A stretch of 64,000 nt of DNA, taken from assembly GCA_025336685.1 (NCBI GenBank), contig GCA_025336685.1_4717.1. One strand, given 5' to 3'. A program made the position numbers and the translations under genes. Positions 8,811 to 63,630 of this stretch are shown here, piece after piece. The stretch comes from Escherichia coli. GTDB lineage: Bacteria; Pseudomonadota; Gammaproteobacteria; Enterobacterales; Enterobacteriaceae. Positions within the stretch are counted from its first letter, which is position 1. Each line of letters starts with the position of its first letter. Below the pieces are notes generated by a model. The model was given only the letters and a program-made list of their open reading frames with translations, did no database searches and was not told where the DNA came from.

Positions 8811-9107
8811 TTATACCGCCACCTTAGCCTTGATAGCAGGGTGTGATTGATAACCGACGAATACAAAGTCTTCGTAGCGGTAATCCGTAATACTTTCCGG
8901 TTTACGTACGATTGTTAGCTTCGGTAATGGATACGGCTCACGACTAAGTTGCTCTTTAACCTGTTCGAAATGGTTGTGATAGATGTGGCAATCCCCACCC
9001 GTCCACACGAACTCACCAACGTCCATATTCAACTGCTGGGCAAGCATATGCGTTAGCAACGAATATGATGCGATGTTGAATGGAACACCTAAAAATACGT
9101 CAGCACT
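8811..9107 (-). CDS. thyA: thymidylate synthase, exon 2
   Basis: [25 protein letters not shown]...[10 protein letters not shown] matches the ThyA C-terminal half; joins in frame to exon 1 ending ...LSCQLYQR. Confidence 0.85.
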
Positions 9108-10214
9108 CATTCTGTTCAGATAAGGTCGTTAATCTTATCCCGTTAAAATAACAGCTGTAGATTATCTCTACAGTTCGGACTATATCACGATCTCCTTCCC
9201 TGGAGACCCCTCCCGTTTCACACCCACTTGGGCGTTACGCTACTCATCACTATTTTTATTCATCCGTTTAGTGCTTTCGCTAGTCTCTGGGCATTCTTCT
9301 ACAAGTCTGTACGATTCAAATTTGGGATTTTTACTACCTAATCGATAAAGTATCGTTGCCGGAACAACACCTAACTGCCGAGCCGCCTCAGTTAAAGAGA
9401 CATACTGAATTCCGTCGATTTCCACTTTACGTGCTGTAGTGGGAATCTTCCCCTTATTCACTTCGGCAAGACGACGTCGCGTCTCTTCTGTATGGTGTCG
9501 CCCATAGAACGAATTCTTTTCCCCGGTTCGGGTTTTTGCAAACTCTGATATCTTTCGACGAGTTTCTTCGCCAACCTTTACACCTAGGCGTCTAGCCCTA
9601 GACGCCGCGATGTTTTCGGGAGTGCATACTTTTCGCCGAATGAGTTCACGTGTTTCCGGTGTATGTGTTCGACCATACATCCCGTTACGTTCGCCCGGAT
9701 TGCCATGAACAGCGCGCCTTTGTTCAGGCGACATCGAAGCGAATCGATCGTTAACGACTTTAGTTATTTTCTCGATTATGTCATCGCGACGTGGGTTTCT
9801 CGATAAATTATCACCGCCTAAAGCACCTTTCCCGATATTGAGAGATGCTTCTTCCGGGATGCTATCGATATACACCTGCTCTAAAGCGTATGCCTCTTCT
9901 CGGGTACTACATTCATCGATATCCACGGTGATAAATCCACCACGGTTATGGATATCTTGTAATTTAGCGTTGTGGTGAGAACCATTACGCAAAGCCGATC
10001 TGTGCGTAGCTAACCGCTGATTAATGTTCCCGGTGCTACCAACATAGACATCGCCGTCTTGAGTACATAACCGATATACTACTGGTTTTTTCATACTGCC
10101 TCCTTTAAAAGAGAGACAGACTTGTAGAAGGTTAGCAACGGATTAGCCCGTAGGCTTTCCCGTTTTAAGGAGGTTATTCGACGTAGCTCACGCTACGAAG
10201 GCGCAGTTGCGTTT
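9108..10214 (-). other. group I intron (1107 nt) in thyA
   Basis: Exon 1 ends in U, intron ends in G (..CUGAACAGAAUG); P-like UUAAAACGGGAAAGCC, Q-like AAUCCGUUGC, R-like CCCAGAGACUAGCGAAAG, S-like GUGAUAUAGUCCG; last ~35 nt closely resemble the T4 td intron 3' end as I recall it. Confidence 0.8.
9240..10094 (-). CDS. GIY-YIG homing endonuclease encoded inside the thyA intron
   Basis: N-terminus VVYRLCTQDGDVYVGSTGNINQRLATH (GIY-YIG), repeated NUMOD-like GxxNxxYGRxHTxETR segments, C-terminal HTH-like region; ATG 10094 preceded by AGGAGG. Confidence 0.85.
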   Translation of the reverse strand: MKKPVVYRLCTQDGDVYVGSTGNINQRLATHRSALRNGSHHNAKLQDIHNRGGFITVDIDECSTREEAYALEQVYIDSIPEEASLNIGKGALGGDNLSRNPRRDDIIEKITKVVNDRFASMSPEQRRAVHGNPGERNGMYGRTHTPETRELIRRKVCTPENIAASRARRLGVKVGEETRRKISEFAKTRTGEKNSFYGRHHTEETRRRLAEVNKGKIPTTARKVEIDGIQYVSLTEAARQLGVVPATILYRLGSKNPKFESYRLVEECPETSESTKRMNKNSDE

Positions 10215-10937
10215 ACGCTGGTAAAGCTGACAGGATAAAGCACGTGTTGGTACGTTATGCGCATTCAACCAAAGTTCTGTTTCACTGCGTCGTACATCAT
10301 CCGTAACCCACTGGGTTCTTAATACGTCGTTGCGCTGGACATAATCAACGCGTTCATCGAGTGTGAGTTCGTGGGTATAGAACTGATAGAATGAATGGCA
10401 CGGAGCGAGATGCATATCGTCTAAATCACCTACGTTCCATGCGCTAACGATGATCCGTCGAGAATCAGGATCTTCTTTAAGCTGACGCATCACGTTTGCA
10501 ATCTGATCGTGATGTCTAACATACACGAGGTGTTTTAGCATACCGTCATTAAGAATGCCGAAATATTCATAGCCGCGTTGCATCAACTCACGAGTACGTT
10601 CTGTATCGTGCGGAACAACCACTTTATAGTCGATCCATTCCCGCCATTGTTTGCCGTAAATCGGTCCTAGATTCCCTTCTTCGTCAGCCCATTCATTCCA
10701 GATACGAACACCGTTATCTTGAAGATAAGCAACGTTTGTGTCGCCGTTAAGAAACCAGAGCAGTTCGTGGATAACGCTCTTAAGGTGAATCTTCTTGGTG
10801 GTTACCAGCGGAAATCCTTTCTTCAAGTCAAAACGCATCTGACGTCCGAATACGGAACGGGTCCCGGTCCCCGTGCGGTCGGCTTTATCGCGACCGTTAT
10901 CCATGATGTCTTGCAAAAGGTCCAAATACTGTTTCAT
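10215..10937 (-). CDS. thyA: thymidylate synthase, exon 1
   Basis: [31 protein letters not shown]...[32 protein letters not shown]...LSCQLYQR; in-frame read-through into the intron gives KRNCAFVA-stop. Confidence 0.85.
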
Positions 10938-46019: not shown

Positions 46020-46257
46020 TTAGCAATGGTTGTTAGTTGCTTCTATTTCATCAAGATACGGTTCTACGTCATCGCCCTCCACGAATTCGTTGAACCAACA
46101 GTCAATGGTAGAAATAACCGGTGACTGGTGTTCACATTTCTTAGATACCTTAAAAGGCACGTTATTATCCATCATACCGAGTTCGGGTCGAAAACGCCCG
46201 AAATGTTTCGCAGTCCAAATGTCTGGGACGATATGGTTGTTCATCGCGTCCCCATCG
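46020..46257 (-). CDS. RNA polymerase beta-prime-like N-terminal subunit, exon 2
   Basis: Starts with codons for DGDAMNNHIVPDIW, the continuation of NADF|DGD; ends at stop 46020. Confidence 0.75.
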
Positions 46258-47669
46258 CTTCAGTTTAATTTGGTCGAACGTATTCCAATTTCAATCCATG
46301 CCAATCACCGCCTTTACTAATAGCGGTACTTATCGTAGTCGGATGCACTTTATGTTCTTCAGCAAGGGCGAATCTATCAGGATAGACTTTATGTGTACCA
46401 TCCTCAAACACCACCTTTACTGGGAACCTTTGTAATCCACCAGTTTTTGGTCTAGGCTCTTTAGGAATATATTTACATTCGTTCACATCGCCAGGATAAT
46501 TCCTTGTCCACCATGCTTTCCAACCGTTTCTGGAAAACATCTTATCTCCATGACATAAGCTATGACTTAATGTCGCATAGCTCACTCCCACCATTGTTGC
46601 CGCCATTACGGTACTTTCCATGTGATACTTGTCTCCATCGGGCGATATTAAAACCAACCCGCCGTAAATAACATACGACTTACCGGCATCTTCGGATGTG
46701 AAACCGACAAATTCCATTCCGTGGGTAGCCGCATCGTAATATTTCATCAACGGCCATTGTCGTGTAGTACGGAACCATTTTGAAATCTGGGTGTGTGGGA
46801 TACCGTAACACTTAGCCGCATCGCGCATACTGTAATGTTCGGTTATCTCGCCAGTTCTCAAATCCTTTATCCATACTGTTTTAGCTTTCCAGTTCAAGCC
46901 CGTACGATAGGCATGGTACGTATTTTGGGATTGACTCGTCCATTCAAGATTATCCAAGCGGTTGTTATCTTTAACTCCGTCAAGATGGTTACCTACTAAC
47001 ATTGATCCCTCAGGCAGCATAGGTTTTTCACGAAAGGTGGATAAAACAACATGATGAGCTGCTATATCTCTACCTTCATGTCTGACCCTTACATATCCTA
47101 ATACGTTAGTTTTTCCTACTTCCTCTCCAGTATAGGCATCTATAATGACACCCTCCACAGAAGCGGCAAGTCCGGGATAATCTTTACAATGGTAAAATCC
47201 TGGGAATTTTGTCTCTCTAAGTTTCATCTTCTCTCCGCTATCGGCCAACAGAGAGAAAACGTTCCTCGGAGGCCGACGTTTTCAAATTAAACTACGTTAT
47301 CGACTATATCTTCATCCTCATTGCGAGGAGTCTCCCGTTTGGGTCTGTGTTTAACAGAGCCTACTCTACTCGACATCGCGTCTTTCGATAGTCTGTGAGC
47401 ACACATCTTAACGAACATTCGTGGACTCCTAAACAGGTGAACATTCTTGTTAAGATGCTTCGCTGCGGGTTATTCCCGTCCTACCTCTTTTACCATACCC
47501 AGTTCATTACGCTGGCCCTCATCTATGTCGCCACGATGAGTTGGTGTGTAGTCCGATTACAGAAACTTCCCGTCAATTAGAGAGTTTTAACTATGTTCCT
47601 GTTACCAGAAACCCGACTCCGATGATATCAATAAATCAACGTAAGTTATTGATTTAATTGAAGAAACTG
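46258..47669 (-). other. group I intron (1412 nt) in the RNAP beta-prime-like gene
   Basis: 5' splice after U (GCCGACUU|CAG); candidate IGS GAGUCGG pairs with exon CCGACUU including a U.G wobble; P AAUUGACGGGAAG, Q AAUAACCCGCAGC, R GCUCACAGACUAUCGAAAG, S GAAGAUAUAGUCGA all in the first ~400 nt; 3' end ...CUGAAG with terminal G. Confidence 0.8.
46265..47227 (-). CDS. HNH homing endonuclease encoded in the 3' part of the intron
   Basis: HHVVLSTFREKPMLPEGSMLVGNHLDGVKDNNRLDNLEW (HNH core); track start 47248 is TTG, ATG 47227 has GGAGAG RBS. Confidence 0.8.
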   Translation of the reverse strand: MKLRETKFPGFYHCKDYPGLAASVEGVIIDAYTGEEVGKTNVLGYVRVRHEGRDIAAHHVVLSTFREKPMLPEGSMLVGNHLDGVKDNNRLDNLEWTSQSQNTYHAYRTGLNWKAKTVWIKDLRTGEITEHYSMRDAAKCYGIPHTQISKWFRTTRQWPLMKYYDAATHGMEFVGFTSEDAGKSYVIYGGLVLISPDGDKYHMESTVMAATMVGVSYATLSHSLCHGDKMFSRNGWKAWWTRNYPGDVNECKYIPKEPRPKTGGLQRFPVKVVFEDGTHKVYPDRFALAEEHKVHPTTISTAISKGGDWHGLKLEYVRPN

Positions 47670-56591: not shown

Positions 56592-56995
56592 GTACGAAGG
56601 ATTTGGTTAACTTCGCTTCGCATCACCGATAAACGACAACGAAAGTCGAACTTCTCATCGTGGCCGTAGTCTTCATGCATGAAAACTTCATCCAAAACGA
56701 ACTCAAGTTGCGTGTCTACATCACGACCGGAGATATTTCGTTTGTACAGATACAGTTCAATCGTGTCGTAAAGCAACGTATGAATATCATAATTTCCGTT
56801 CGGCGAGAAATAAGGTAATCGCTCATCGAGCATCGAAAACAGATACTCACTGTAGTTTAATAACGGGATGATGTACCGACGTCCGGTCTGTGGTGTGCGA
56901 ATATGTATCGAAACCTGACTTGGACGCGGAATAGCCGACGGCTTAGAATCGTCTCTCTGAAATTGCTCTAAAGATCGCAACAAAGGTGGCCGCAT
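56510..56995 (-). CDS. hypothetical protein
   Basis: ATG 56995 (MRPPLLRS) with GGAGAG RBS. Confidence 0.35.
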   Translation of the reverse strand: MRPPLLRSLEQFQRDDSKPSAIPRPSQVSIHIRTPQTGRRYIIPLLNYSEYLFSMLDERLPYFSPNGNYDIHTLLYDTIELYLYKRNISGRDVDTQLEFVLDEVFMHEDYGHDEKFDFRCRLSVMRSEVNQILRTWIPRVEDWWHFNFTLDTSMTLWLVVE

Positions 56996-57239
56996 TGTAA
57001 CTCTCCAACGCCCAATTGTAAGGCCCTTCCAACATGTGTTCCCATACGTGAATAAACTCACTACCGAAGACAGGCTCGAGCGCCATGGTGAGATTCGTAA
57101 GTTCTGACGCTGCCGCATGGTAAGCATCAACATGTCTTTCCATCGACGGATCGTCTTCATTGAAAATACGTTCTGTGTCGCCAGCCCTCTCAATAAGTTC
57201 GGTAATGAGATCTGTCCATGTTTCGTGGCACGTCATCAT
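56943..57239 (-). CDS. hypothetical protein
   Basis: ATG-ATG at 57239/57236 (MMTCHETW) with AGGAA upstream. Confidence 0.3.
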   Translation of the reverse strand: MMTCHETWTDLITELIERAGDTERIFNEDDPSMERHVDAYHAAASELTNLTMALEPVFGSEFIHVWEHMLEGPYNWALESYNAATFVAIFRAISERRF

Positions 57240-58167
57240 TTCCTGTTCTCGACTTAGTATTCCGATGTCTGCGTGGACGCTGGACTCGAACCGGTCTAAA
57301 AGGACCCGAAGAACATGCACCTTGTCGATGTATTTCACCGTTATCCAAGAAAGCGGTCGCCATCGACTCAGCGTCCATCCGGTACTCGGGAACCCCAAAC
57401 TCATATAGTACGGGTTGCACGGGACCGAAGACGGAGCGACGTTGTTTAAATCGTTCCTTAATGGCAATGCCCTGTTTAATGTAAATGGGTTCATTGGCGA
57501 GTTGTTTCGCTTTTCGTTTCGCGTGAGCCAATCGAAGTTCTTCCAATTGCCCAAGCCATTCAAATTGTTCATCTGTTAGCTCCTGGGGACGTTCAACAAT
57601 CGCGCCAGATGGGCAGACATTGATCGTGATGTTAATTGATGGCATCGCCATCACTTGAGGGTTACTATTACGTACGCGGACAACATGTTCGGTTGCTGAC
57701 TTACGATCAACGCAATACTCTGTTTCTTGGAACTCAAATGCTTTTAACGGTGTTGGTTTTGTTTGATGTTTCTTAACACGACCAAGATCAACGATATAGA
57801 CATAGTCGCACACACGCTCTATTCCGTAAATACGGTTATCCGACCAGTTCTTACCAAACAGCTTGTTGTGATGATAAGACAAATATTCGGTTACCATACC
57901 CTGAACAACATCGAAGTCTTCTCGAAAGTCAGGTTGATACCAAATCGGGCCGAGAATATCTGCGAACGATTCGTGACGATATCGAGGATCATGTCGAGTC
58001 CAGGGCATTCTCTGATTAAGATCGAAATCCACCAACAATTCCGTTAATTGCAGTTTTTCCTTCGGAGAAAGCTGGCGTTGATGATGCAAACTCAAGCAAT
58101 CGATAAGTGGTAATGAAACCCACGATGCTAATGTGTACAAATCGATCCTGGCTAGTCTCTTGGTCAT
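57190..58167 (-). CDS. hypothetical protein
   Basis: ATG 58167 with AGGAAA RBS; C-terminal ~45 aa Arg-rich. Confidence 0.4.
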   Translation of the reverse strand: MTKRLARIDLYTLASWVSLPLIDCLSLHHQRQLSPKEKLQLTELLVDFDLNQRMPWTRHDPRYRHESFADILGPIWYQPDFREDFDVVQGMVTEYLSYHHNKLFGKNWSDNRIYGIERVCDYVYIVDLGRVKKHQTKPTPLKAFEFQETEYCVDRKSATEHVVRVRNSNPQVMAMPSINITINVCPSGAIVERPQELTDEQFEWLGQLEELRLAHAKRKAKQLANEPIYIKQGIAIKERFKQRRSVFGPVQPVLYEFGVPEYRMDAESMATAFLDNGEIHRQGACSSGPFRPVRVQRPRRHRNTKSRTGNDDVPRNMDRSHYRTY

Positions 58168-58258
58168 ACTCTTTTCCTAAGTCCCCATTGTTTATACACA
58201 CGATATCTGGGAATAGTTAAAATATACGGCGTAAAACGAAATAGGAGAGTTTCTGGCA

Positions 58259-58390
58259 TCATTTTCTCCCTCTTCGAATACCACCGATACCTCTTCGATC
58301 CAAGACGTCCCAAGCACGCTTTATTTCTTCCTCCCGTTCCTGATTCCAATCGTTAAATCGTTTTCTTATTTTATCCCACCACTCTCCCAT
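58259..58390 (-). CDS. small basic protein (43 aa)
   Basis: ATG 58390 (MGEWWDKIRKRF) with AGGAG RBS just downstream of a terminator. Confidence 0.3.
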   Translation of the reverse strand: MGEWWDKIRKRFNDWNQEREEEIKRAWDVLDRRGIGGIRRGRK

Positions 58391-58412
58391 GCTTTCTCCT
58401 ACACGGCATAAA

Positions 58413-58434
58413 AGCCTGCCCCGAAGGACAGGCT
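58413..58434 (-). terminator. hairpin AGCCUGUCC-UUCG-GGGCAGGCU followed by UUUUAUGCCG
   Basis: 9-bp stem (one G.U), UUCG loop, U-tract. Confidence 0.55.
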
Positions 58435-58443
58435 CGATAGAAC

Positions 58444-58644
58444 TTAATAACCATCCAATTTCAATGAAGGATGGTTGACGATATGTGCGTGTTTTGCTGG
58501 GTCGTATGGTTGATATGGAAAATAACCATGCCACTGACGACCTTGGCATTTCGTACATACGAACTGACCATCGCTTCGCTGATTCTCGTAAGCGAGTTCA
58601 GTACTATCAACATGACCGCAACGTTCGCAGATAAACAGCGACAT
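58444..58644 (-). CDS. small zinc-ribbon protein
   Basis: CERCGH ... CTKCQG, 66 aa. Confidence 0.4.
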   Translation of the reverse strand: MSLFICERCGHVDSTELAYENQRSDGQFVCTKCQGRQWHGYFPYQPYDPAKHAHIVNHPSLKLDGY

Positions 58645-58826
58645 AGCGCATCTCCATTCACTTGAACTTTTTGGTTCGGTGTTAGAAAAGCAAGAAACCG
58701 CTGTTCTTCGCTTCCGCTACAGTTTCGTCACCAACTTTCGGTGCCTGTTGACGCGCGTTACGATGTTCGATGTAACGTTTCGCTTCGTCAGCGATTTGTT
58801 TGATAATACCCTAAACGATCCAGTAC

Positions 58827-59660
58827 TTAAAACAAACGACGTCGCTTCTGAATCAGGCTGCTTTCAGGTACAAAACCGTCACAGCTGTAAATAGCGTTAA
58901 CACCCATGACTTTAGTCGCGTCTTTCGGATAAAGCGTACAGAAAGCAATAGGACTATCGTTCTCTTTCGTCCAATCGTATCCCACGAACGTATTCAGTTC
59001 GGTGATCGTTGGTTCCAAACCGGTAACACGTGGATGGTTTAAGAAGTTTTCCAGGTCGGCGCTGTCAAGACGACGGTTCTCACCAGAAAACAGAACACAA
59101 AGCTGGCTAATAACAACCTGCACGTCCAGGTTGACATCCTGCTCCGATTTCCCATTTTCGCCATTCATGTGATAGCTAACAATCACCGGACGTTTCAATC
59201 CTTCTGCAGCTGCCATCAGTCCTTTAAAGGTACGATCGGCGTTGATCGTTTGACGCTCATCATCGAACGAGGCAACGATGCAACACACCACACGTTCACC
59301 GCGTTCCAGCAGGTTAGCAACCAACGCAGGACCTGCAACAGAACCTGAACCACCGCTCAGACTAAAGACCACGATATTAAATTTACCAGGCGTATGCTTA
59401 TTGAGAATGCCTGGGATTTGTGAACAGATCAGTTCAGCGTTCTCATCACGCTTCTTACCAGAACCGTCTAACTCACGACCCGCCGCATCTTTAAAGATGT
59501 AGATATGATCGTCGTCCAGTGCGCTATCGCGTAGGTTAGCCCGGCTGGTATCAACATACGTCATGCTGTGTAATCCTTTCGCGACTTCGCCTTCAAACGC
59601 TGAGCCGATTTCGCCACCACAACCACCAACAGCCCAAATATGTACTTGGTTCTCTTGCAT
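58827..59660 (-). CDS. phuZ: PhuZ-like phage tubulin
   Basis: IWAVGGCGGEIG (tubulin/FtsZ N-terminal G-box) and FSLSGGSGSVAGP (GGGTGSG-type loop); block order matches PhuZ as I recall it; 277 aa, apparently lacking a C-terminal tail. Confidence 0.75.
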   Translation of the reverse strand: MQENQVHIWAVGGCGGEIGSAFEGEVAKGLHSMTYVDTSRANLRDSALDDDHIYIFKDAAGRELDGSGKKRDENAELICSQIPGILNKHTPGKFNIVVFSLSGGSGSVAGPALVANLLERGERVVCCIVASFDDERQTINADRTFKGLMAAAEGLKRPVIVSYHMNGENGKSEQDVNLDVQVVISQLCVLFSGENRRLDSADLENFLNHPRVTGLEPTITELNTFVGYDWTKENDSPIAFCTLYPKDATKVMGVNAIYSCDGFVPESSLIQKRRRLF

Positions 59661-59724
59661 GTGAACTCCTAATTTAATATGTATTTAACGTACAATGAAT
59701 CTTTCTTTGCTAAAGGGGTGACCC

Positions 59725-60567
59725 ATGGGTGCTATTGACCACAGTGTAGATCGTATCTGTCGTACAATACCGGCAGATATCCTACAGTATTGCTATATCG
59801 ATCGTTACGACTGGCGTAATCGCTATCCTCGTTCCGTAGAAGACATCATTACCGATTGGGTAATCCGTAAACGGGTTATCGGTGACATCGATATCTACGG
59901 GGGACTACAAACCGTTATTCCCCTCGATGATGCTGGCGTCACAGTCGAAGAAGTCACCATTAATTGTTATGTTTTCCACATCCCGTTGGAAGCCACGCAG
60001 GGACGTTATATCACGTCCGCATTATCCATTATCTCAGGGAGCGTGAACAACTACGGAATAAACTATAACGGGCAATGGGGTGCTTTCAACCAAACCCAGT
60101 TTCAACGTCAGCTTTGTGGGTGGAACCCCGCAAGCAACACGTTACAGCAAGGGATGAATGCTTTCGGTCCCATGAACGTTCTTAGTACGGCCAACGTTGA
60201 TATCATCGCCCCTAACACCATCATGGTGAACAACGTCACGCCGGTACAATTTCCCCTGAGTCTACGTTGTTTTCTTGCCCACGATCCGGAACTCACCAAC
60301 CTCAGCATGGAAGTTTGGAACGACTTCTACAAACTCTGTTTATACGCCACGCAAAGTGACATCTACAACAGAACCGTTATCCGTCTCGATAGAGGTGTTA
60401 CAGCACAAGGACAAGAAGTCGGTGCATTCAAGGAATACATCGATCGCTTTGCTGATGCTGAAAACACATATCAGGAATTCCTGAACGAAACGTGGGCTGG
60501 CGTTGCTGCCTGGAACGATCCACAAACTAAACGTCGCGCCATTCGACTACAAACCGGCTACTTCTGA
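59725..60567 (+). CDS. hypothetical protein
   Basis: 280-aa ORF, RBS AAGGGG, divergent from phuZ. Confidence 0.5.
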   Translation: MGAIDHSVDRICRTIPADILQYCYIDRYDWRNRYPRSVEDIITDWVIRKRVIGDIDIYGGLQTVIPLDDAGVTVEEVTINCYVFHIPLEATQGRYITSALSIISGSVNNYGINYNGQWGAFNQTQFQRQLCGWNPASNTLQQGMNAFGPMNVLSTANVDIIAPNTIMVNNVTPVQFPLSLRCFLAHDPELTNLSMEVWNDFYKLCLYATQSDIYNRTVIRLDRGVTAQGQEVGAFKEYIDRFADAENTYQEFLNETWAGVAAWNDPQTKRRAIRLQTGYF

Positions 60568-61094
60568 TTAACGACAGCTTCCTCCCTCGGTGTTTTCGAG
60601 GGAGGTATTTGCCGTTTGAACACTTTCAGCACGTTCGCAAAATCAGCAGCAATAATACAGGCCGAGGCTGATAGCTTATTGCTGAAAATGAGATCGTCCG
60701 GTAAACAATCGAACTGAATACCATATTGCGTCTTTGTCTCGTCAACGATCAGTGACGGTGTCGATCCTGTCTTCGCAATATCGGTGATGTACAAACGTAA
60801 AAATAATTCACCGTCTTCGCTATCAATAAAACGATAAGCGTTACCGGAAAACGCAGCATACGGCGTAACGATAAATTGAACACGATCGTCGGTCGGGTGG
60901 ATTTGTAACCAACGTTCGACATCGTTATTGCTCACATTCTGCATACGTAACACCGTGAATGCGAACAGTGTATCGTGATGCTTGGAATAATGCAGCACAT
61001 ACGCCGCATCTTTCTTTCTGTGAATCCCTTCAATATATTCTATTGTCGTGTAGCCTGATTTATATAGCTTTACTTGCGGTTTATCACTCATCAT
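60558..61094 (-). CDS. hypothetical protein
   Basis: ATG 61094 (MMSDKPQVKLYK) overlapping the upstream stop. Confidence 0.45.
   Translation of the reverse strand: MMSDKPQVKLYKSGYTTIEYIEGIHRKKDAAYVLHYSKHHDTLFAFTVLRMQNVSNNDVERWLQIHPTDDRVQFIVTPYAAFSGNAYRFIDSEDGELFLRLYITDIAKTGSTPSLIVDETKTQYGIQFDCLPDDLIFSNKLSASACIIAADFANVLKVFKRQIPPSKTPREEAVVNQK
60581..60605 (+). terminator. hairpin CCTCCCTCG-GTGTTTT-CGAGGGAGG followed by TATTTGCCG
   Basis: 9-bp perfect stem 14 nt after the stop; overlaps the 3' coding end of the convergent gene. Confidence 0.5.
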
Positions 61095-61390
61095 AACAGC
61101 CCTTCCCGTTTCATCGCAGCGCGCATACTTGCGTAAAGCGCATTCTTCATCGCACCTGGACGCAACGGATAACAAATCTCATATCGACGTCCTTGTTTTA
61201 CAGCAATTTTCCTTCCGTTCAAAAACAGCGTACCATTATCCAGCAACAACTCACCTTGTAGTACCATGAGTCCTGCTTTAACATGCCGTCCTTCTTCTTT
61301 AGTTAAGACCTTATAGCCGTGTTTATCCAATAACCACAATTCGTAGATACCATGCGCAGCCTTCGGCATTACTTTCTTCTTCGTCGTCAT
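61091..61390 (-). CDS. hypothetical protein
   Basis: 99-aa ORF. Confidence 0.45.
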   Translation of the reverse strand: MTTKKKVMPKAAHGIYELWLLDKHGYKVLTKEEGRHVKAGLMVLQGELLLDNGTLFLNGRKIAVKQGRRYEICYPLRPGAMKNALYASMRAAMKREGLL

Positions 61391-61402
61391 GGAAGATCCT
61401 CC

Positions 61403-61777
61403 TTAAACTCCTTGTCGGACCATCACCAACCGGAGCATGTTGTATTCCAATGTAGCGCTTTCTAATTCGAATTCATATCGATACCAGAAATTCGGCTCTA
61501 GTTGACCTACAACACATTTACGAACGTCTGTCTGCACCTTCCTCGACAATCCCTGTAATAGTTGCGTTATCTCTGGCCTGAAGTAATACGCCAAACCTAA
61601 CTGGTCAGAGTAAAACAGGCCACAATCAAAGATGGCCTGTAAAATAACATATTCAACCATCAGGTGCCGTGCATGGGGCTCAGGGAATGGCGAACGTAAA
61701 GCAAGATCTAACACATCGACGATTGGGCCGACATAAATGGCGGCACGGTACTCACGAATAACACTGATGTTATCCAT
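61403..61777 (-). CDS. hypothetical protein
   Basis: 124-aa ORF. Confidence 0.45.
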   Translation of the reverse strand: MDNISVIREYRAAIYVGPIVDVLDLALRSPFPEPHARHLMVEYVILQAIFDCGLFYSDQLGLAYYFRPEITQLLQGLSRKVQTDVRKCVVGQLEPNFWYRYEFELESATLEYNMLRLVMVRQGV

Positions 61778-61790
61778 GGTAGCCTATTCA

Positions 61791-62615
61791 TTAACTATCG
61801 CTTTCTGATGTATCAACGTAGTTGAAAATACGATCCCGTAAACACTCATAACGAGGCAACGCACTAAGAATGATCATCTTCAACTGCATCGCGATCGATA
61901 CGCGTTCTTCATCCGATGCATCGTCTCCCCATTTACCCGGCTTAACCTGAATAGGTTCACGCGGATCCTGCGGAAATATGAAACTTAACAACAGATAATC
62001 CGTACGGAACTCCCACACTTCTCGGCCGTCGTTATCGGTTTCTTTACGCAACGTGAAGAGTTGACGTTCGGTGGTTGGATCCAGCATCAGCGGTCGACCA
62101 CGAACGATCTCCAGTTTACGTGGACTGACGAACGTCGTACGTTCAGGAAGGTATTTTTCAACATCATCCGTATCCAACAAGAACAAAATGATGTCGTCGA
62201 AATACTTCGGTGCGTACGTGTGTATCGGTTCGCCATCGCTATACGAAGAGATCTCTTGGAGTATTGGCGTCTTAGACGAAAAGTTCTGGCATGAACCACG
62301 AGTGATCGGTAAGGTGTTCCATTGATGTTCCGTAGACAATTCGACAGGCACCAACGGATAATCATCGATGAAGACCGCGCACGTTGTGCTAATGGGTATT
62401 CTTCCATCATTGTTCGGTTCAAAAACCAGACGTATCTTACCGGTAATTAACGCCATCTCATCTGGCATTAAGTGGCTCGCTGACCGGGCAAGTCTGAAAC
62501 CGCTCGCCTGTTTATAAGGTTCGGGTTTATAGCCACGGACAATAAGAGAGACATCCGCAAGTTCAACGCTCACGAACGCATCTTTGATGTCTTCATTGTT
62601 CGTCGTTAACGTCAT
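61791..62615 (-). CDS. hypothetical protein
   Basis: 274-aa ORF; ATG overlaps the upstream gene end by 23 nt, GGAG RBS. Confidence 0.5.
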   Translation of the reverse strand: MTLTTNNEDIKDAFVSVELADVSLIVRGYKPEPYKQASGFRLARSASHLMPDEMALITGKIRLVFEPNNDGRIPISTTCAVFIDDYPLVPVELSTEHQWNTLPITRGSCQNFSSKTPILQEISSYSDGEPIHTYAPKYFDDIILFLLDTDDVEKYLPERTTFVSPRKLEIVRGRPLMLDPTTERQLFTLRKETDNDGREVWEFRTDYLLLSFIFPQDPREPIQVKPGKWGDDASDEERVSIAMQLKMIILSALPRYECLRDRIFNYVDTSESDS

Positions 62616-63630
62616 TGTTCATTTTCTCCATTGCTACAAATCGTTCAAGTTCACGTAATAAACGCTCTTTTAAAGCAGGATCAACTTCCGGAGCATGTTT
62701 ATCACGATACCATTCGGTCCCGTTGTATTGCAGGCTAACATGCCATGTTCCTAACGGGCTTTCCTCTGCAGCGGCGATGAAATTCTTAACGCCGGTTTTG
62801 GTAGGATACTCCATGATAGGAACAGCCTGCTTCGGATCCATTACGGTAAGATCCTGGAAGTTATAATCCAGGAGTGTTAACGCGCGTTTGTCGCGTAACA
62901 GTAATCCGCAATCCAAGATAGTGAAATCAATACCCCAGAAACGTAACTTACCTCCAACCCCAACAGGGGTATGGCCACGATAAACCGCGAGATAAATCTC
63001 ACCTTTATCGGTTTCTTTGTTGTATCCTGCAATGAAAGCAGCCGTAATTAATGGCTGGTGTCCTTTCGCTAAGAAGACAGGGTGGTTATGATACAACCAG
63101 TCACTACGAATCAGATCGGTAACCTGACCTAAACGTGCTGTTGGTACCATCACCGATCCCAGAGTTTCATCAACAGGAACCTGGTAATATTCAAACAGAA
63201 CACCATCGATTTCTTCGGTAGCGTAAGGCGTACGTGTGGGATCGTTAAGAAGTTTACGGAGTTTTGTGTCGATTTCGTTAACACGGCTACCCTGTTCTTT
63301 CTCGCGGCTACCGATAACAAAAGCAACAAGATTACGTACGCTAACAAAAACATCATCTTTCTCGGTGTCGCTGAGATCAGCCTCATCCGGCATCGTTGTC
63401 CAATGTAACGGACCTTCAACGACCTTAAGCCATCTATCTTCACGTCCCGGATAAATAAAAGGCTTATGTACAGGAACACTGGTATGCTGAACCCGTAATA
63501 ACAGATTACATAACGATGGCAATGTTTTCTCCAGAGGAGGAACAATACCTGATGTAACGGAAATAACGTAACGATTAAGAACAAGAGAAGCTGAATAGGT
63601 GATGTTATCTAATCCTGGTAATTGATCCAT
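62593..63630 (-). CDS. hypothetical protein
   Basis: 345-aa ORF, RBS AAGGA. Confidence 0.5.
   Translation of the reverse strand: MDQLPGLDNITYSASLVLNRYVISVTSGIVPPLEKTLPSLCNLLLRVQHTSVPVHKPFIYPGREDRWLKVVEGPLHWTTMPDEADLSDTEKDDVFVSVRNLVAFVIGSREKEQGSRVNEIDTKLRKLLNDPTRTPYATEEIDGVLFEYYQVPVDETLGSVMVPTARLGQVTDLIRSDWLYHNHPVFLAKGHQPLITAAFIAGYNKETDKGEIYLAVYRGHTPVGVGGKLRFWGIDFTILDCGLLLRDKRALTLLDYNFQDLTVMDPKQAVPIMEYPTKTGVKNFIAAAEESPLGTWHVSLQYNGTEWYRDKHAPEVDPALKERLLRELERFVAMEKMNNDVNDEQ

Follow-up and report, generated by a model that had tools for sequence, protein, structure and literature searches.

A phuZ gene broken near codon 271 in a Goslar-like jumbo phage contig: compact frameshift lesion or local assembly error

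The phuZ locus and its phage context

The window, meaning the whole stretch of 64,000 nucleotides analysed here, belongs to a Goslar-like Escherichia coli jumbo phage and shows approximately 94–95% nucleotide identity to Escherichia phage vB_EcoM_Goslar (95.4% match for the phuZ region). It is collinear over its whole length with Goslar ~123.5 to 186.2 kb, at a per-block identity of 88–96%, and the collinear span takes in the genes for the nuclear shell protein and for the multisubunit RNAP, as in a chimallin-encoding (nucleus-forming) jumbo phage, with phuZ in synteny with a characterised phuZ. The gene order around phuZ is the same as in Goslar, running from a DUF7484 gene through phuZ, which is followed by a terminator, to a gene for a 66-aa zinc-ribbon-like protein (58444..58644, minus strand). 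The latter is a homolog of Goslar gp235 with weak zinc-ribbon Pfam hits and its own GGAG ribosome-binding site, and is untouched by the lesion described below. At ~58259..58392 (minus strand) lies a homolog of Goslar gp236 (106 aa) carrying a 188-bp deletion relative to Goslar, with its junction near 58334; the deletion is shared with the two closest relatives of the window, L022 (an ENA metagenome) and L023 (GCA_039902845.1), both 99.1% identical, and gene calls at this position differ between Goslar-like loci, giving 106, 92, 128 or 65 aa or no gene at all.

The phuZ ORF (58827..59660, minus strand) encodes 277 aa and ends in ...SLIQKRRRLF, i.e. ...ESSLIQKRRRLF, followed by a TAA stop at 58829..58827, as the initial annotation had reported. 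The corresponding gene of Goslar (gp234, YP_009820885.1, annotated 'tubulin PhuZ'; PDB 9pm9/9pmk) and that of 24 other Goslar-like loci measure exactly 981 nt and encode 326 aa, making the shortfall 49 aa and not about 40 aa as first estimated. Over residues 1–271 the product shares 96% amino acid identity with Goslar PhuZ, and it is authentic up to residue 271 apart from a Pro270Leu substitution, while residues 272–277 (QKRRLF-type) are out-of-frame junk. The Tubulin GTPase domain (Pfam PF00091) matches residues 9–151 with an E-value of 4.8e-7 and 30.7 bits, just below the 33-bit curated cut-off, as is also the case for Goslar PhuZ itself. The GGSGS nucleotide-binding signature of the tubulin/FtsZ GTPase domain is present in the 277-aa ORF (SLSGGSGSVAGP), and the T7-loop catalytic aspartates (Goslar D199/D202, RLDSAD) are likewise kept (GENRRLDSADLENF); both aspartates are invariant in 22 homologs, and D202A is a published GTPase mutant of Goslar PhuZ (PMC9891218). 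Helix H11 and the subunit-contacting tail are missing from the ORF as written; their coding DNA is intact but lies in the +1 frame, behind stops.

When compared to database entries, the 277-aa product was found to be identical to NCBI MCT7382273.1 / WP_260974143.1, labelled 'hypothetical protein', which judging by its sequence is a frameshifted PhuZ. MCT7382273.1 is encoded by a contig of 240,999 bp in a draft assembly of E. coli. The window thus belongs to the Goslarviruses picked up as by-catch in assemblies of bacterial isolates, a group for which 237 genomes have been reported (PMC12768965). Assemblies carrying the labels E. coli O157, Shigella sonnei, Shigella flexneri or Salmonella enterica also contain contigs of ~235–248 kb that encode identical or near-identical Goslar-type PhuZ, and Goslar-type PhuZ (the cluster of P0001; loci L007–L026) also occurs in gut metagenomes, which agrees with the reported by-catch spread of Goslarviruses (PMC12768965).

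Several further features were recorded in the window. The thymidylate synthase gene (8811..10937, minus strand) is interrupted: ~1.1 kb that is missing from Goslar lies between its N-terminal part (10188..10937) and its C-terminal part (8811..9110). The insert encodes a 284-aa ORF (9240..10094) with GIY-YIG, NUMOD3 and I-TevI DNA-binding domains, and hence an I-TevI-like homing endonuclease; it probably marks a T4 td-type group I intron, with no intron called there in an Rfam gathering scan. A second group I intron (RF00028, 50.3 bits; 47281..47660, minus strand) lies beside the RNA polymerase beta-subunit gene, as annotated in Goslar, and adjoins a 327-aa HNH_3 endonuclease ORF (46265..47248; the region spans 46246..47660, minus strand). 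As this ORF gave no DNA-level alignment to the Goslar HNH gene, the homing-endonuclease cargo of the intron appears to have been exchanged. Finally, at 62929..63500, inside the homolog of Goslar gp228, divergence from the closest relatives jumps from ~0.3% to >25%, with in-frame indels, in what looks like a mosaic recombination patch.

The displaced 3' end and the lesion patch

Downstream of phuZ, and in the +1 frame with respect to it, an open frame reading GIIKQIADEAKRYIEHRNARQQAPKVGDETVAEAKNSGFLLF extends between a TAG (58813..58811) and a TAA (58684..58682). It had initially been noted as a start-less, protein-like frame of 46 codons at 58670..58810; the frame and the absence of any ATG or GTG hold (the sole TTG lies 3 codons before the end), while its extent is 42 sense codons at 58810..58685 (58682..58810 with the TAA, minus strand). 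Its openness alone is within chance ((61/64)^42 ~0.13), and the frame is meaningful because all 42 residues are identical to Goslar PhuZ residues 285–326, comprising most of helix H11 and the C-terminal tail. This identity fully explains the protein-like look. The DNA of the displaced segment has 0 nt differences from the two closest relatives and 3 nt differences from Goslar, all of them synonymous. The frame is thus almost certainly the tail of PhuZ, displaced, rather than a gene of its own, and aligning PhuZ homologs through the C-terminus, the check proposed at the outset, gave the same answer, in that 277 aa is not full length and the downstream frame corresponds to the PhuZ tail.

The two parts are separated by a 45-bp patch (58811..58855, minus strand) that contains three indels (−1, +1 and −2; net −2) and three substitutions, all specific to the window when compared to every relative. 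Relatives read CCCGATTCGTG...ACCGATCG...GGGGG across the patch, the unlesioned-type sequence being ...CCCGATTCGTGAAGCGAC(G/T)TCGTTTGTTTTAAGTACCGATCGTTTAGGGGGTATT..., and the indels were located by DNA alignment with Goslar and two IMG/VR relatives. The first is a 1-nt deletion at 58849/58850 (CGTG > CA-G) with an adjoining substitution, the second a 1-nt insertion at 58822 (ACC-GATC > ACTGGATC) with an adjoining substitution at 58821, and the third a 2-nt deletion at 58811/58812 shortening a G5 run (GGGGG > GGG). The third substitution is the C>T at 58855 that gives Pro270Leu.

As a result of these indels, the Goslar stretch PESSPIREATSFVLSTDRLGGIIKQ... is spread across all three frames in the window. 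Frame 0 keeps PESSLI, upstream of the frame break; the first deletion then shifts the frame and TAA follows seven codons on. The PhuZ residues EATSFVLST (58822..58848, minus strand), the last beta-strand of the activation domain (E274–279 in the structural model), are found only in the +2 frame, DRL (58812..58820, minus strand) is again in frame 0, past the TAA stop, and the tail, GIIKQ...FLLF, is in the +1 frame. One frameshift is insufficient to join phuZ and the tail, as had been stated at first, since the +1 frame after phuZ is closed by TGA and TAG and three indels lie between the two parts. Compared to Goslar PhuZ, the window thus holds the same gene at the same locus with the last 42 codons 100% identical in the +1 frame, but the allele differs by the −1, +1 and −2 indels within codons ~270–284, which leave 277 instead of 326 aa and the last strand, H11 and the tail untranslated. 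The locus as a whole represents a single gene, the phuZ of a Goslar-like chimallivirus, interrupted close to codon 271 by a single compact lesion, and is either a broken gene or an assembly error.

Conservation of the locus and the origin of the patch

For comparison, 24 Goslar-like loci with 21 distinct phuZ sequences were taken from GenBank, IMG/VR, ENA, Logan and NCBI assemblies. Their phuZ genes are 86–99% identical to that of the window, and all 24 have the 981-nt length with 0 indels. Across these loci, tail codons 272–326 show 24 synonymous variants against 2 amino-acid variants, and patch codons 268–286 show 11 synonymous and 0 non-synonymous variants. Over 58400–59800 (1.4 kb) the window differs from the two closest relatives only at the patch and at four substitutions, with zero differences in 58400–58810. 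The four substitutions are clustered within 22 bp inside phuZ (59388–59409, minus strand), all at third codon positions, and may represent a short recombination tract, in contrast to the disruptive patch 550 bp downstream. Across 56727–61800 (~5,030 nt), 15 substitutions and 0 indels were found outside the patch (0.30%), a rate at which a 45-bp segment should hold ~0.13 changes, compared to the six window-specific ones (Poisson P ~7e-9). No other indel relative to these two relatives occurs within 6 kb, and in the ~60 kb aligned to Goslar (~60 CDSs) the phuZ patch is the only internal frameshift, other non-3n indels inside CDSs being located only <=~25 nt from a gene start or stop.

The allele is absent from the 24 related loci, and among 15 listed members of the 111-member cluster (40 read) the only 277-aa protein is the window sequence itself. 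Exact-pattern scans detected none of the three indel junctions, each searched separately, in IMG/VR, nor the combined string of the second and third indels in GTDB genomes; in JGI metagenomes, scans with this combined string and with the first junction found no such allele, and two 21-mer matches were unrelated high-GC DNA. Complete E. coli genomes and PLSDB plasmids, searched for a second assembly of the same strain, gave no match, and a contig search returned no record of the window's own 277-aa or 325-aa proteins. A templated origin of the patch by template switching or gene conversion was rejected, the junction k-mers of 9–12 nt matching elsewhere in the window, on both strands, only at chance level. 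Import from a divergent PhuZ lineage was also rejected, as P0002 and P0003, homologs with 56–61% identity, are unrelated in sequence across the patch segment.

Of the explanations considered at the outset, sequencing or assembly error and genuine truncation both remain in play; the truncation itself stands (326 aa in all 24 loci), but the tail is not decayed as had been proposed, being pristine with the damage confined to the 45-bp patch upstream of it. The probability that the lesion is real in the phage DNA is put at, or only slightly below, an even chance. In its favour, the rest of the window is base-accurate, the gene hit is a dispensable one, and only one of the three indels is a homopolymer change. 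Against it, six changes in 45 bp form an abnormal mutational pattern, the allele is unique, and the source is a by-catch draft assembly.

The strongest alternative is a local consensus or assembly error, in which the phage would have an intact 326-aa phuZ and the patch would reflect a poorly supported k-mer path, a polishing error or a basecalling problem; we consider this plausible, at a probability somewhat under one half. It would account for the extreme clustering of three indels and three substitutions in 45 bp between flanks (411 bp downstream, 532 bp upstream) identical to the closest relatives, for the strong purifying selection on the tail and patch in all other genomes, and for the occurrence of the allele in one assembly only. 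Furthermore, one indel is a homopolymer change (G5>G3), the substitutions are readable as C:G>T:A next to indels, and the phage read share in bacterial isolate assemblies can be very low, with low values possible for Goslar-like contigs as well (PMC12768965). The full-length 240,999-bp phage contig on the other hand argues against very low coverage, and three indels at one spot are atypical of short-read consensus error at a coverage giving a single 241-kb contig. An error would also have to explain the two indels outside homopolymers in a window where ~60 CDSs hold no other internal frameshift and 6 kb hold no other indel relative to the closest relatives; a generally indel-prone (e.g. nanopore-only) assembly is ruled out by this otherwise frame-clean window. 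A choice between a real single complex mutation and a local consensus error cannot be made from the sequence alone, and the two come close to an even division.

Gradual decay of an old pseudogene after a first frameshift is highly unlikely. Changes following the first deletion would be neutral, but the five further changes are without exception confined to the first 45 of the ~175 untranslated nt, with 0 in the remaining 130 ((45/175)^5 ~1e-3). Moreover, the tail has 0 differences from the two closest relatives and only 3, all synonymous, from Goslar, and the 271-codon body differs from these relatives only at four third-codon positions. This reading was rejected on account of the pristine tail, and the confinement of the secondary changes to the first 45 nt points to either a recent complex event or a local consensus error.

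Programmed recoding, by which ribosomal frameshifting, stop readthrough or transcriptional slippage would rejoin the tail to PhuZ, is less probable still. The TTT_TAA_G at the ORF end offers a T-run at which a +1 slip is formally possible and would enter the tail frame. The +1 frame, however, reaches a TAG five codons on, directly before the tail, authentic PhuZ could be restored only by three separate changes of frame within 40 nt, and the G run, cut to 3 nt, is too short for slippage. The relatives (24/24) have a plain uninterrupted ORF and no split gene; neither a conserved slippery sequence with a stimulator nor a two-frame layout kept in relatives was found, and an Rfam scan of 58400–59100 at E<=1 gave no RNA element or recoding signal. 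Recoding was therefore rejected, on the three frame changes needed, the stops in the path, the lack of a split gene in relatives and the lack of an Rfam match.

That the 42 codons form a small gene of their own, using a non-canonical start, is barely credible: the frame is open and its codon usage protein-like, but the sequence is the phuZ 3' end (residues 285–326, 42/42), the same DNA is the in-frame end of phuZ in all relatives with no separate gene there, only ATT/ATC codons stand at its beginning, the AGGG just 1–2 nt upstream leaves no usable Shine-Dalgarno, no promoter was found upstream of the frame, and the one terminator-like match near it lies on the opposite strand at chance level.

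Predicted consequences for PhuZ and its phage

To place the lost segment in a structural context, the AlphaFold model of P0001 (97% identical; mean pLDDT 86.8) was used. The model comprises a beta-strand at residues 274–279, the long helix H11 at 281–305 and a lower-confidence tail at 306–326. According to this model, the 277-aa product would lack the final activation-domain strand together with H11 and the C-terminal tail, with the GTPase domain and the T7 aspartates kept.

Goslar PhuZ resembles the PhuZ/TubZ proteins of the Pseudomonas phages 201phi2-1 (PDB 3R4V, 3J5V) and phiKZ (PDB 3ZBP/3ZBQ) in its tubulin/FtsZ fold, in H11 and in a tail that binds the next subunit, and it matches the 201phi2-1 PhuZ and phiKZ TubZ PDB chains with E-values of 5e-29 and 4e-15, respectively. 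The proteins differ in that identity is only ~30% and in that Goslar-type tails terminate with a hydrophobic GFLLF/GFLIL motif. PhuZ of 201phi2-1 fails to assemble into filaments, in vitro as well as in vivo, when its C-terminal knuckle is deleted or the contacts of the knuckle are mutated (PMC7950403), and the phiKZ TubZ tail becomes ordered along the neighbouring subunit, greatly enlarging the interface (PMC3678025). According to published work, PhuZ assembly is abolished by removal of the tail (PMC7950403; PMC3678025). Since the tail is required for PhuZ polymerisation, the 1–277 product would not be expected to polymerise, and the allele should be filament-deficient. The tail deletions of 201phi2-1 and phiKZ were engineered in the laboratory, whereas the window, a natural sequence as deposited, carries the equivalent of such a deletion.

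If the lesion is real, one complex and very recent mutational event, without gradual decay, would have broken phuZ near codon 271, and beyond the premature TAA, seven codons after the first deletion, the remaining gene would go untranslated in the other two frames. The phage would then make a 277-aa PhuZ with the GTPase domain and T7 aspartates and without the last beta-strand, H11 and the tail. The PhuZ vortex of Goslar rotates the phage nucleus (PMC9891218); with a filament-deficient PhuZ, no cytoskeletal vortex and little rotation of the nucleus would be expected. Such a loss could be tolerated by the phage, PhuZ being non-essential as evidenced by viable dominant-negative mutants and knockouts (PMC11724907). 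The phuZ gene of phiKZ withstands dense transposon insertion, the competitive indices being ~0.35–2 (bioRxiv 10.1101/2025.11.23.690004), and PhuZ has been lost repeatedly within the Chimalliviridae (PMC11724907, PMC12768965). Given this dispensability and the repeated losses, a genuine loss-of-function allele is biologically plausible.

A real lesion would resemble natural PhuZ loss in the Chimalliviridae, where nucleus-forming phages lack a working PhuZ (PMC11724907, PMC12768965). In the Erwinia phage Asesino clade, Vibrio phage Ariel, Seoulvirus and Bapsvirus the gene is wholly missing, whereas in the window it is present, 99% like its intact relatives, with a fresh frameshift patch. Mechanistically nothing new is involved, the locus being a well-characterised Goslar-type phuZ with a frameshift patch, at most a natural tail-less allele and at least an annotation or assembly error. 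A link between the lesion and carrier-like persistence of jumbo phages in bacterial cultures is improbable.

The annotation is corrected in that there is no new small gene and no recoding signal downstream of phuZ. If the patch is an artefact, it illustrates that by-catch phage contigs from bacterial assemblies can carry local errors mimicking pseudogenes. It is possible, though at a little less than an even chance, that a wild Goslar-like phage accompanying an E. coli isolate lost the polymerisation of its PhuZ only just now, by a single complex event, as the first step of the losses seen repeatedly in the Chimalliviridae. If real, the lesion would provide a natural tail-less phuZ in an otherwise wild-type Goslarvirus, with which the share of the PhuZ vortex in phage fitness outside the laboratory may be tested, as well as a dated example of incipient PhuZ loss.
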